From NCBI RefSeq assembly GCF_057098645.1, contig NZ_CM169472.1: a DNA stretch of 64,000 bases; one strand, 5' to 3'. Positions 60,001 to 63,000 of the stretch are shown in pieces (position 1 is the stretch's first letter; every line of letters begins with the position of its first letter). The position numbers are program-made.

Positions 60001-63000
60001 TTAAGGTTCTTGGCTATGACAGAGATGGAGAATACCAATTTACAAGCATTAACCAGGATCACAGGCCTATAACGTTGCCTTATCATCAAGTAGCAAAGGT
60101 GGAGTATGTAGCTGGTATTCTGAAGCAATCTCGCCATCTGGATGACATCGAGGCAAGGGAGTGGCTGAAAAGTTCGTGACTTCATCGTCACATAGCTGGT
60201 AACCAGTGGCCAGAAGAAACGTTTGGGTGAGGAGGATAGATGGCGTTCACTGACCTTGAATATCAAGCGGTCAAAAAAGAAGTTCACCAATTCATTGAAA
60301 GCATAAGGCCGCCTGAACATATCCGCAATGAACTGGATATTGTTTATAGCATCAATGACCAAACGATAGATATCGGCGAACAGCGCCCCGTGTGGCAGGG
60401 CAACCCAGGTGAAACAAACATCCTGCCATCAGCAAGAATCAAGTACATACGTTCTCTGGATAGATGGAAAATCTATTGGATGCGGAAGGATATGAAATGG
60501 CATCAGTACAGTACTGAACTTTCGCTGACTGATGCGCTTGAGCTTGTGCGTGCTGACCCGGATTGCTGCTTCTTCGGATGAGTGAAGAGACGTTTGGATG
60601 ATGGATGATCGCAGAGATGCTCGTAGAGCATACAGCGATGCAGGAGAATTTATGGCACTTAATTTAGAAAGAATATCTTTTATAACCCCATTTGATAGCA
60701 GCGAAGAACCCAACCAACCGACGCTTAATTTTACATGCAATGAATTTCCTGCGCGGCTATCAATTGATTTCAGGGTTGGTATGATCGGGTTGAAACCAAA
60801 TTCAAGATATAATTTGGGTATTATGGTAATCCCCGCGCACCTAATTATAAAAAAAGGTGAGGAAATTCAATTCCCTGACGGCTCTTCGGAATCAGTTTCA
60901 CTTTTCATCGATACGAAAGATAGCCATTTTGAAACAGGGGTTGGCGGACAGGTAATAGTAACATTGAAAGAAATTAGGGTCCCAGCTAAAGGGCTGTATA
61001 GTGTTATAGGGATATTGCAAGATAATGAAGACCCTAAAAATGAACTTCATAAAAATGAATCATTTTTCACCGTAGAGCTATTATGAGTGACGACAGTAAT
61101 TTAAATAATCATGGAAAGCAAGACACCAACATATCTGAAAGCCGGAGGTTGAAGGTTGTTGGCGGTTCCGATTTTGAGGCTGAATTTGATAATTCTCCCA
61201 CCAAGGTGCAAAATAATTACATAAAACCGCCACAAACGGAGGAAGAAGTGGGAACGATCAGCAGAGAGGAACTTGATGCTCGCTTAGCTGCTAATAAAGC
61301 AGAGATGGAGTCTATTGCTTCTTCCATTAGGGCTGACATGGCTCTATCTCGTGAAAGCGTTAATGTCCAATTTGCATCACTTAATGCAGCCATAAGCTCT
61401 CTATCGTCCAAGATCGATGGAAAGATGGATAGCGCTGCTGGCGATATAAAAGCAATTAATGGGAGATTCGAAGGAATTCAAGGACAAATAACAGGGGTTA
61501 ATACCGCAATTAGTGGTGTTCAGTCGGGTATTTCTATACGATTAGCCATTTTTAGTGTCATTATCGCTGTAATAGTTGCGATTCCCGGGCTGGTATCAGC
61601 TTTAAAGTCAGACCACGCACCTTTGCAACAGCCTTCCACTTTGCAAGCGCCGCCACAAAATACCCAGCCAACAGACAACAAAAAAACCACTCCCCAGCAT
61701 TAACGCATTAACCCGGCCTCAGCGCCGGGTTTTCTTTGCCTCACGATCCCCACACCTAAAAACACATTGAACCGCCCCGGTTTTCCTGGAGAGTGTTTTA
61801 TCTGTGAACTCAGGCTGCCAGATCATCGTTTCTGATGGAAGCATAATAAGCTTTTTCTGCTTCTGCCGGAGGGATATGACCCAGCCTTCCCAGCAATCGT
61901 CGATTGTTATACCAGTCCACCCACGTGAGTGTGGCCAGTTCCACTTCTGCACGGTTTTTCCAGCTCTTACGGTGTATTACCTCCGCTTTGTAAAGACCAT
62001 TGATGCTCTCCGCCATCGCGTTGTCATACGAGTCACCTGTACTCCCTGTTGATGCCAGCAGTTTTGCTTCTTTTAGTCGCTCCGTATAGGCCAGTGATAC
62101 ATACTGAGAACCTTTATCACTGTGATGGACTGTGCCGGACGGCCGACGGGCCCACAACGCCTGCTCCAGTGCATCCAGCACGAATGTCGTTTCCATAGAC
62201 GATGAGACTCGCCACCCCACGATACATCCGGCAAACACATCAATGATGAACGCCACATAGACGAAGCCCTGCCATGTGCTGACGTAAGTAAAATCAGCCA
62301 CCCACAGCTGGTCAGGACGTTCTGCCACGAACTGACGGTTTACGCGGTCGCCTGCGGAAACGGCTTTCCGGCTGACGGTAGTACGGACCTTTTTACCCCG
62401 GAGAACACCGGCAAGTCCCATAACCGCCATGAGACGTGCCACAGTGCATCTGGCCACTCTGATACCTTCCCGTAACAACTGACGCCAGACTTTACGCACA
62501 CCGTATACCTTGTGATTTTCATCGTATACGCGCTGTATCTCTCTCTTCAGCCAGTCATCGCGCTGAGCACGGGCACTGCGTTTATCAGGATGATGTCGCT
62601 GTTGCTGACAGTGGTAATACGTTGACGGGGCAATATGCAGTTCACTGCATACCGGTCCGACCCCGTACTGCTCACGCAGCTTATCCAGCAGCGGCATTAT
62701 TTTTTCCAGAGGCGGTCGAACTCCGCCTTCGCAAAATAAGCGGAAGCCTGGCGAAGGATATCGTTACTGCGGCGCAGTTCACGATTTTCACGTTCCAGCT
62801 CTTTCAGACGCTGACGTTCAGCGGTGGTGAGTCCACCATCACCACTCCCGGTATCCCGCTCATGCTGACGAACCCACACACGCAGAGTCTCTGGTGTACA
62901 GCCAATCTTTGGGGCAATGGAACAAATTGCCGCCCATTGTGAGTCATATTCGCCCTGACTTTCCAGAACCATACGAACTGCCCGTTGACGGACCTCGGGG

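Follow-up and report, generated by a model that had tools for sequence, protein, structure and literature searches.

Genes and features of the cI operon

The window (the whole stretch of 64,000 nucleotides that was analysed) carries, right behind a cI repressor gene and on the same strand, three open reading frames of 113, 144 (162 if counted from the first ATG) and 206 aa, as the preliminary description had stated. The locus comprises the following features:

59475..60179, + strand: cI repressor, 234 aa, first gene of the operon (ORF and translation; PHROG 4, transcriptional repressor, E 6e-38)
60204..60230, + strand: non-coding relic of a lambda-type cI 3' end, reading QWPEETFG-stop (comparison with HK542, 933W and locus L019)
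60240..60581, + strand: gene 1, 113 aa, DUF3024 protein, homologue of 933W L0084
60583..60602, + strand: second copy of the cI-3'-end linker, GAAGAGACGTTTGGATGA (95% over 20 nt versus the last 20 nt of lambda cI)
60652..61086, + strand: gene 2, 144 aa, predicted all-beta Ig-like sandwich, PHROG 5893
61083..61703, + strand: gene 3, 206 aa, predicted tail-anchored membrane protein, PHROG 5820 (E 8.8e-77)
61709..61767, + strand: tIMM-type intrinsic terminator and conserved right-hand slot boundary (terminator scan, identity to relatives)
61768..63075, - strand: IS3-family insertion sequence of about 1.3 kb (ORFs, Rfam, breakpoints against the IS-free locus L018)

Residues 81-234 of cI are 95% identical to the 933W repressor, and the first 80 residues are unrelated to it (BLASTP). 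The relic at 60204..60230 lies just 5' of the ribosome-binding site of gene 1 and constitutes the left-hand linker of the gene 1 module. The second linker copy is the junction common to the 933W-like and HK542-like segments: the match to 933W runs to 60620 and the match to HK542 begins at 60583, so that the two overlap across the linker. Further downstream, the stop codon of gene 2 and the start codon of gene 3 share an ATGA at 61083-61086, and the cassette ends at a terminator whose hairpin (61710-61731; eight pairs, six of them G-C) is followed by a T-run; both features had been read correctly before. The terminator block is 96% identical to HK542, where it is annotated as Timm, 91.5% identical to 933W tM and 88% identical to lambda DNA downstream of rexB. 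The low GC content ascribed to the cassette was also borne out (gene 1, 0.459; gene 2, 0.375; gene 3, 0.435; whole window, 0.509), and cI (0.445) and cro (0.444) are likewise low.

No other terminator-like site was found on the + strand between the cI stop codon and 61703 by the terminator scan, and the promoter scan returned five sites versus 8.0 expected by chance, that is, fewer than chance, and hence gives no support for an internal promoter. The common strand, the short gaps and the lack of an internal terminator would fit co-transcription with cI, and the accessory genes are presumably expressed in the lysogen from PRM. The genes had been placed before OL/PL and N, but OL/PL and N do not follow directly: the IS3-family element lies between the terminator and PL/N. 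This element (orfA, 62697-63023; orfB, 61810-62697; frameshift pseudoknot, Rfam ALIL, 120.9 bits) is context outside the cassette, and its pseudoknot was the only match in an Rfam scan of 58500-64000.

A cassette site between cI and tIMM

The slot between cI and tIMM is the textbook site of lysogen-expressed exclusion genes, holding rexAB in lambda and stk in 933W. Similarity between HK542 and lambda extends through the final base of cI and resumes at the rexB stop codon and tIMM, and the interval is filled by genes 2 and 3. Because genes 2 and 3 of HK542 thus replace precisely the lambda DNA from the cI stop to the rexB stop/tIMM, the location is exactly the rexAB slot, and the earlier assignment to this slot holds at the nucleotide level. 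Besides lambda rexAB and the 933W kinase Stk, which matches PD-T4-6 (E 1e-37) and mad6, other occupants of the slot are ParA-like ATPases and an NYN-domain protein. Cassettes are exchanged at this slot, which has defined linkers.

To describe how general this position is, we examined 29 distinct prophage contigs or genome stretches holding a member of the gene 2 family. The gene 2-3 pair lies directly after a same-strand repressor gene in 28 of them, the lone exception being the myovirus tail cluster of L016/L017. About seven reference types of repressor precede the pair, lambda-type, 933W-type and short rac-like repressors among them, and most of 18 more distant gene 3 homologue loci are likewise found behind a recognisable repressor. 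Two dinI-adjacent contexts (L008 and L052) were considered as instances of the same hotspot and rejected, as their flanks are not homologous. Within the repressor (PRM) operon of the window we distinguish two separable accessory modules, module A consisting of gene 1 and module B of genes 2 and 3.

Gene 1 is a DUF3024 protein and an optional module

Genes 1 and 2 had both been described as matching nothing recognisable, which stands for gene 2 but not for gene 1. The gene 1 protein matches Pfam PF11225 (DUF3024) over its full length (E 2.7e-31, residues 4-113 of 113) and the PADLOC candidate family PDC-S43 (E 7.2e-42, residues 1-113), and the gene is 98% identical to 933W L0084 at the nucleotide level. 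Its AF2 model (pLDDT 89.3) consists of a helix, a five-stranded sheet and a second helix, and its dN/dS ranges from 0.08 to 0.15. The DUF3024 literature that we searched contains no demonstrated function and nothing beyond one PADLOC prediction listing. Membership in PDC-S43 makes gene 1 a phage-defence candidate and only that.

The three genes had further been regarded as a single cassette, a view that had to be abandoned because the presence of gene 1 does not depend on that of genes 2 and 3, and gene 1 is also associated with other cargo. HK542, HK244 and other prophages have genes 2 and 3 but no gene 1. Elsewhere gene 1 accompanies the Stk module, a 177-aa protein, or ParA-like and NYN proteins, and it is also found in contexts of Erwinia and Yersinia. 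Gene 1 is often the first gene in the slot, with direct repeats of the cI-end linker on both sides, and these repeats mark it as a recombination module.

Gene 2 encodes a predicted beta-sandwich protein

The alignment of the gene 2 family (20 sequences) begins at M-x-N-x-ERISF, which corresponds to 60652 and has an AGGAG just upstream; an alternative ATG at 60598, giving 162 aa, is used by the RefSeq annotation in some genomes. The protein is predicted to be a cytoplasmic all-beta Ig-like sandwich. Confidence in the model is only moderate (pLDDT 67.7), the folds that it matches are generic beta-sandwiches without functional content, and there is no Pfam match even at E≤10. For this gene dN is 0.12 and dS is saturated. 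The 97-99 aa partners from Yersinia and Pectobacterium were considered as divergent gene 2 proteins and rejected (hhalign probability 0.2%).

Gene 3 encodes a predicted tail-anchored coiled coil

Hydropathy and heptad analyses agree with the earlier picture of gene 3 as a coiled coil with one C-terminal membrane helix and a Pro/Gln-rich tail. A variable N-terminus (residues 1-57) precedes a conserved coiled coil (about 58-150) with I-x-G heptads; the heptad pattern covers residues 60-150, and conserved heptads continue into the membrane helix. This helix (about residues 153-175, nt 61539-61607) is the sole hydrophobic segment, its strongest 19-residue window being residues 156-174 (Kyte-Doolittle 2.71), and Pro, Gln and Thr are abundant in the last 31 residues. 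The protein has no signal sequence, and we infer an N-in topology with the bulk of the protein in the cytoplasm. The lack of a signal sequence together with a single helix at 153-175 of 206 residues fits intracellular sensing.

Hydropathy profiles of gene 3 and of seven proteins that are homologues or partners place gene 3 among the tail-anchored coiled-coil membrane proteins, which are an architecture class and not a homology family. A single membrane helix makes no obvious channel, a point against the membrane-acting reading of genes 2 and 3 given below. Sequence and profile searches of the PDB returned no significant match for gene 3. Weak matches to Baculo_PEP_C, MakE, SlaB and LmuB (E of at least 5e-4, far below the curated cut-offs) were discarded as compositional, as were sub-threshold PDB matches to sigma-1, haemagglutinin, ApoE, SmhB/AhlB and TRPM7 as coiled-coil noise. 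Short tail-anchored partner proteins were considered as truncated forms of gene 3 and rejected, the alignment being limited to the membrane helix.

Obligate pairing of genes 2 and 3, with exchangeable parts

Of the 29 gene 3 homologue loci that were analysed, 28 have a small ORF of 92-165 aa directly in front of the gene 3 homologue, the gap between the two being -50 to +18 nt; only L170 lacks it. The pairing of genes 2 and 3 is obligate. The upstream partners belong to at least five unrelated families, and the N-terminus of gene 3 varies with the partner family while the coiled coil and the membrane helix stay conserved. Matched clusters of partner and gene 3 N-terminus account for 23 of the 29 loci (9, 5, 4, 3 and 2), each of the remaining six combinations being seen at one locus. 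In addition, the Zn-ribbon partner at L117 is homologous to that at L176 (E 7e-17), yet it is paired with a different, short tail-anchored protein, and the gene 2 homologue at L016 is paired with the same short tail-anchored type as L117. As these combinations show, partners and membrane proteins also recombine. The proteins of genes 2 and 3 may interact physically, although plain physical linkage of adjacent DNA, and not interaction, could also explain the co-variation of partner and N-terminus.

The homologues reach down to 22-35% identity with conserved synteny, and the families span many genera of the Enterobacterales. Such distant syntenic homologues and a dN/dS of about 0.1 (0.11 for gene 3) identify the ORFs as real genes rather than chance ORFs, and the genes are under purifying selection. 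Four independent disruptions (two different IS1 insertions, an internal deletion and a truncation) all affect gene 3 and leave gene 2 intact. This pattern is compatible with gene 3 being a costly effector, but four of four is not significant because gene 3 makes up 59% of the length of the pair (chance probability about 0.12).

The homology and structure searches matched genes 2 and 3 to no characterised family, and gene 1 only to DUF3024/PDC-S43. Neither gene 2 nor gene 3 belongs to a family in Pfam, NCBIfam (above cut-off), PADLOC (PADLOC-DB of 2023) or the PDB, and all their PHROG matches are families without annotated function. Literature searches with the WP accessions of the genes, L0084/L0083 and HK542/HK244 found nothing relevant, and none of the accessions is present in the DefensePredictor supplements. 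The pair may already have been named elsewhere.

Comparison with known systems

The closest counterparts are HK542_035/036 of HK542 and HK24404/05 of HK244, which are the same two genes at 99% identity, deposited as hypothetical proteins. In these wild lambda-immunity phages the pair takes the place of rexAB, with no gene 1 and no annotated function. The 933W cassette L0084-L0083-Stk-L0081 occupies the same slot in a closely related backbone, has the same linker and terminator and shares gene 1 (L0084), but the window lacks the kinase, the RuvC-like L0083 and L0081, and genes 2 and 3 instead follow at the linker after gene 1. None of the three proteins in the window matches PD-T4-6, the Ser/Thr kinase defence system, in PADLOC.

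With lambda RexAB the pair shares an identical slot and boundaries, from the cI 3' end to tIMM on the cI strand, and the combination of a soluble protein and an inner-membrane protein encoded by two genes of the repressor operon. There is, however, no similarity between genes 1-3 and lambda RexA or RexB (best BLASTP E 0.059), and the DUF4747 domain of RexA is absent from gene 2, which has no Pfam domain, and from gene 1, which has DUF3024 only. RexB and gp31 of mycobacteriophage Sbash have four membrane helices (PMC6426596), but in gene 3 a long coiled coil is followed by a single C-terminal helix. When lambda RexB was put through the same hydropathy test, it gave several hydrophobic segments, and BLASTP found no similarity between it and gene 3. 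The sizes are also reversed, the soluble protein being small and the membrane protein large in the present pair.

PdpSau of S. aureus and lactococcal AbiP resemble gene 3 in architecture, as prophage accessory proteins with one membrane helix and a cytoplasmic bulk. Unlike gene 3, they have an N-terminal anchor and an OB-fold-like cytoplasmic domain, and they are single genes of Gram-positive hosts. PHROG and NCBIfam searches of genes 2 and 3 revealed no homology to exclusion-annotated families of the SieA, Imm, gp15 or Sie2009 types.

Proposed function and alternatives

By their position and architecture, both modules are good candidates for a new phage-exclusion system. Our preferred reading, to which we give somewhat less than an even chance, is that genes 2 and 3 are expressed in the lysogen and act at the membrane as an exclusion or abortive-infection pair, an analogue of RexAB and not a homologue. 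Gene 3 would form an oligomeric tail-anchored coiled coil in the inner membrane with most of the protein in the cytoplasm, and its variable N-terminal segment would dock the beta-sandwich protein of gene 2, so that gene 2 and the gene 3 N-terminus together would constitute a swappable sensor head. An infecting phage would perturb this head, upon which the stalk and the membrane helix would compromise membrane function and the infection would fail. Both the anti-phage activity and the membrane effect are inferred here. For Rex-type pairs, a loss of membrane potential triggered by a sensor has been proposed as the mode of action, and the RexAB-type pair Sbash gp30/31 has been proposed to depolarise the membrane (PMC6426596). 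PdpSau, a single-pass prophage membrane protein, causes abortive infection accompanied by a change in membrane potential (PMC10127798).

A broader version of the RexAB-analogue reading, which we offer tentatively and consider somewhat unlikely, is that the pair represents a wide and so far unrecognised class of two-gene prophage defence modules in which a conserved tail-anchored coiled-coil effector carries interchangeable small cytoplasmic sensors on its variable N-terminus. The sensors would comprise the beta-sandwich, the Zn-ribbon and several families of about 100 aa, amounting to a plug-and-play analogue of RexAB across Enterobacterales prophages.

Among the alternatives, the strongest, albeit an unlikely one, is that the modules serve the prophage or its host in another way, by tuning induction or repressor cleavage, through membrane or stress physiology, or as some other lysogenic-conversion trait. 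We consider it decidedly unlikely that genes 2 and 3 form a Sie-type device that blocks incoming phage DNA at the inner membrane without killing the cell. Gene 3 does appear to be a membrane protein encoded in the lysogen operon, its tail motif QPIIIQVPQ is kept in homologues outside E. coli, suggesting periplasmic contact, and one distant pair is a moron within a myovirus tail/baseplate cluster, a location comparable to that of HK97 gp15. Yet the prediction places about 150 of the 206 residues of gene 3 and the whole of gene 2 in the cytoplasm, leaving only about 30 residues outside, the periplasmic motif is degenerate in the window's own gene 3 allele, and no PHROG family annotated for superinfection exclusion was matched. 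Known Sie proteins are single, small and either polytopic or N-terminally anchored, and are not known to come as two-gene sets.

That all three genes work as one functional system is improbable. They are tightly packed with no terminator between them, and 12 of 19 viral contigs of the E. coli type hold all three together, downstream of cI genes of at least four types, but this is countered by the pairs lacking gene 1 in HK542 and HK244, by the other cargo accompanying gene 1 elsewhere and by the linker repeats that bracket gene 1, as would befit a recombination module. Finally, decaying or non-functional cargo of a defective prophage, a reading prompted by truncated or IS-disrupted gene 3 alleles and by the IS element adjoining the cassette in the window, was already disfavoured and is hardly credible given that all three frames are intact here, that the families persist across many Enterobacterales genera at a dN/dS of about 0.1 and that HK542, which carries the pair, is deposited as a complete phage genome.

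Significance

The analysis adds to the occupants of the slot a recurrent, uncharacterised pair of a soluble and a membrane protein with swappable parts, and provides a concrete construct of about 1.1 kb for defence-system discovery in prophages of pathogenic E. coli. The pair is present in about 1% of complete E. coli genomes and is for this reason of relevance to phage-therapy host range in EHEC/EPEC-type strains. If active, the pair would represent a new membrane-acting mechanism and a natural system for the exchange of sensor specificity.

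Gene layout and coding signals

Three same-strand ORFs follow the repressor gene cI, as the preliminary description had stated, and the run closes with the clean terminator it had described:

59475-60179, + strand: cI, the repressor gene preceding the three ORFs
60240-60581, + strand: gene 1, 113 aa
60652-61086, + strand: gene 2, 144 aa (162 aa from an in-frame upstream ATG at 60598)
61083-61703, + strand: gene 3, 206 aa
61710-61731, + strand: terminator, strong hairpin and T-run (terminator scan)
61768-63075: IS3-family element with orfA (108 aa), orfB (295 aa) and an ALIL frameshift pseudoknot (120.9 bits)

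The gene 2 stop and the gene 3 start share the sequence ATGA, the overlap that had been read as translational coupling. The terminator scan detected no second + strand terminator-like site between cI and 61710-61731, and the promoter scan gave no evidence for an internal promoter because its sites were fewer than expected by chance. We placed the gene 2 start at 60652, where AGGAG lies seven bases upstream and the protein begins with the N-terminus M-x-N-x-ERISF conserved in a 20-member family alignment; RefSeq uses 60598 in some genomes when gene 1 precedes. The 18 extra residues are conserved in no gene 2 homologue. A 149-aa antisense ORF (59913-60362, - strand) overlapping the cI end and the gene 1 start is probably spurious.

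Lower GC had been noted for the cassette, and all three genes (0.459, 0.375 and 0.435 for genes 1, 2 and 3) do fall below the window value of 0.509, but cI and cro are likewise low (about 0.445). Comparative data show all three ORFs to be real genes. Homologues occur across Enterobacterales with identities down to 35% (gene 1), 22% (gene 2) and about 32% (gene 3); where dS is unsaturated, gene 1 has a dN/dS of 0.08-0.15 and gene 3 one of 0.11, and gene 2 has a dN of 0.12 with saturated dS.

The cassette does not directly precede OL/PL and N as first described: the IS3-family element intervenes, inserted between tIMM, the terminator at the right edge of the slot, and OL/PL-N, about 36 nt past the terminator hairpin. 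N (63523-63906) and the cassette are intact beside it. The related genome 14EC001 has no IS at this position and carries one further downstream.

The rexAB slot and its modules

In the wild phages HK542 and HK244, which have lambda immunity, genes 2-3 occur at 99% identity right behind a lambda-type cI, and the annotation on either side of the pair shows PRM, Timm, OL, PL and N. In the HK542-lambda alignment, the match runs up to the last cI base and picks up again precisely at the stop of rexB and tIMM, so that the pair takes the place of the spacer, rexA and rexB alone. Across the window's terminator block (61709-61767), identity is 96% with HK542, 91.5% with the tM region of 933W and 88% with lambda tIMM; together with the HK542/lambda boundaries, this bears out the proposed rexAB-equivalent position at the nucleotide level. 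This replacement of rexAB was reportedly noted when the HK542/HK244 immunity regions were described. Genes 2 and 3 are deposited in GenBank as HK542/HK244 hypothetical proteins (EF120457, EF120458, JQ086373).

The first 421 bases of the region, containing gene 1, are 98% identical to 933W, where the order is L0084, L0083, stk and L0081. From 60583 on the window matches HK542, the two matches overlapping at 60583-60620. This overlap holds GAAGAGACGTTTGGATGA (60583-60602), 95% identical to the last 20 nt of lambda cI, and a longer relic (60204-60230, QWPEETFG-stop) lies past the window cI stop, just 5' of the gene 1 ribosome-binding site. Both linker relics are non-coding and repeat the final 20-27 nt of a cI of lambda type, a sequence that is the genuine cI end in HK542, lambda and the comparison locus L019. 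As the relics lie on both sides of gene 1, it is bracketed by direct repeats; in prophages with a lambda-type cI (L019), the true cI end takes the role of the left-hand linker. The linkers look like recombination joints allowing cargo modules to be swapped in the slot. The alternative gene 2 start codon at 60598 lies inside a linker relic.

The single three-gene cassette originally envisaged is not upheld. Of 19 viral contigs of E. coli type that carry genes 2-3, behind several different repressors, 12 have gene 1 and 7 do not; gene 1 is bracketed by linkers and elsewhere precedes other cargo. On this comparison, gene 1 and genes 2-3 are two modules rather than one. Genes 2-3 were found in 50 of 5426 complete E. 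coli genomes, always chromosomal and in single copy, and the full arrangement of cI with genes 1-2-3 in 12.

The window repressor is a hybrid: residues 81-234 of cI are 95% identical to 933W cI, and BLAST finds no similarity to 933W cI in the N-terminal 80 residues, the DNA-binding domain. This unrelated domain implies that the prophage would pair a 933W-like backbone and 933W-type N with a different immunity specificity. For the remainder of the prophage (36000-59400), Escherichia phage JLK-2012 (O55:H7) is the best phage match, with 96% identity at 80% coverage, and Stx1a-converting phages come next.

Gene 1 is a DUF3024 protein

Contrary to the view that gene 1 resembles nothing recognisable, it belongs to DUF3024 over its whole length (Pfam E 2.7e-31), with a further match to PDC-S43, a PADLOC candidate (E 7.2e-42). 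Its confident AF2 model (pLDDT 89.3) comprises a helix, a five-strand antiparallel sheet and a helix. Our literature search found no paper on DUF3024 and one occurrence of PDC-S43, among the PADLOC predictions listed for a strain of O157:H7.

Among 80 viral contigs, gene 1 is usually the first gene after the repressor and is followed by varied cargo: L0083-Stk-L0081 (about 30 contigs), a 173-177 aa protein of PHROG 2602 (about 15), genes 2-3 (about 13), ParA-like ATPases (L114, L124), an NYN-domain protein (L078) or other two-gene sets (L117, L118, L122). In Erwinia, the block DUF3024-L0083-Stk-L0081 lies beside dinI without a repressor. In Erwinia aphidicola (L052, 4001-6130) this block, in which L0083 belongs to a RuvC-like PHROG, is kept as a unit at 59-86% aa identity and adjoins tail genes and dinI, away from any repressor; in some settings, then, gene 1 may have a functional link to the kinase module. 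In Yersinia ruckeri, DUF3024 is followed by a P63C protein near smpB.

Genes 2 and 3 pair as exchangeable parts

Gene 2 had been described as matching nothing recognised. Searches of Pfam, NCBIfam and PADLOC indeed brought up no model for it, and it matched only PHROG 5893, a family with no assigned function. About 15 genuine relatives, 140-153 aa long, emerged when 1.84 billion representatives were searched with a profile; the best matches in viruses are phage proteins, uncharacterised and about 135-140 aa long. The AF2 model (pLDDT 67.7, pTM 0.62) is a moderately confident, all-beta seven-strand sandwich. Gene 2 is probably cytoplasmic, as no signal sequence is apparent.

For gene 3, Pfam, NCBIfam and the PDB returned solely sub-threshold coiled-coil noise. 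Its family alignment has a variable N-terminus, a conserved segment (SREELxAxLAANKAE...IASxxRxEMAxWRE), an I-x-G heptad run with indels of 7 or 14 residues, and a single membrane helix with a Pro/Gln-rich tail behind. In the hydropathy profiles of gene 3 and of seven proteins that are its homologues or analogous partners, a single helix stands out, at the C-terminus. Together these features confirm the coiled-coil, one-helix, Pro/Gln-tailed protein initially proposed. The tail motif QPIIIQVPQ occurs in homologues outside E. coli and has degenerated in the window allele. Since gene 3 lacks a signal peptide and has its one helix at residues 153-175, it is by default predicted to be tail-anchored and N-in.

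In Citrobacter and in metagenome and viral contigs, gene 2 relatives directly follow the repressor and are coupled to a downstream gene 3 relative; a repressor, of about seven reference types, precedes the gene 2 family member in 28 of 29 distinct stretches. Seen from gene 3, a small ORF (92-165 aa) lies upstream in 28 of 29 loci (gap -50 to +18 nt), the exception being L170. At least five families with no relation to one another supply these partners: the gene 2 family, two with members of about 96-101 aa, a CxxC family (112-135 aa) and a Zn-ribbon family (131 aa). The 97-aa partners were considered as gene 2 relatives, and hhalign found no relation. The N-terminal cluster of gene 3 tracks the partner family, with matched clusters in 23 of 29 loci (9, 5, 4, 3, 2) and singleton combinations in the other six. 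Such tracking is consistent with a partner that docks on the N-terminus of gene 3; it could also stem from the linkage of neighbouring DNA.

The Zn-ribbon partner in locus L117 is homologous to that in L176 (E 7e-17); a 96-aa tail-anchored coiled-coil protein comes after the former and a gene 3 homologue after the latter. In L016, a distant gene 2 homologue within a myovirus tail cluster precedes a 108-aa protein with the same PHROGs as the 96-aa protein. These short tail-anchored proteins have only the membrane helix in common with gene 3. Parts thus recombine across families, and there is a recurrent architecture with exchangeable components, a small soluble partner and a tail-anchored coiled-coil membrane protein. 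Two-gene sets of like layout lie at L117 3897-4534, L176 2472-3375, L122 3903-4591 and L016 4001-4751, and such sets occupy the repressor slot or occur as morons in tail clusters.

Several E. coli genomes have a disrupted gene 3 beside an intact gene 2, by IS1B insertion (H85), by IS1A insertion at a different position (H86), by an internal deletion leaving 104 aa (H94/H95) or by truncation to 139 aa (L048). These independent events are the ones seen at L180 (NZ_CP063473), L181 (NZ_CP195467), L012 and L048. The losses are suggestive of a costly effector; by gene length, four of four independent events would fall in gene 3 with a chance of about 0.12, which is not significant.

A possible exclusion device

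Judging from the arrangement, genes 1-3 would be transcribed with cI from PRM/PRE up to tIMM. Gene 1 would be an independent module to which we assign no activity, and genes 2-3 a two-component exclusion device: a gene 3 oligomer anchored in the inner membrane would face the cytoplasm, gene 2 bound to its N-terminus would be the specificity element, and infection would trigger a membrane defect that aborts phage growth. The reasons are the known slot occupants, rexAB and Stk, which matches PD-T4-6, and two precedents in which a prophage defence acts on the membrane, Sbash gp30/31 (PMC6426596) and PdpSau (PMC10127798). We hold this model tentatively, at somewhat less than an even chance. Lacking DUF4747, a four-helix membrane protein and any sequence similarity, genes 2-3 are not RexAB by descent.

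A non-defence function in the lysogen, such as induction control or membrane physiology, seems rather unlikely. An entry-blocking Sie function is less probable still, since almost the whole protein mass is predicted to lie in the cytoplasm. That genes 1-3 act as a single three-gene system, given the contigs in which genes 2-3 stand without gene 1, is very unlikely, and decay is scarcely credible.

In the libraries and literature searched (PADLOC-DB in its 2023 release), no function is attached to genes 2-3, which may have been named recently. Genes 2-3 are best regarded as a putative lysogen-expressed exclusion cassette in the immunity region.
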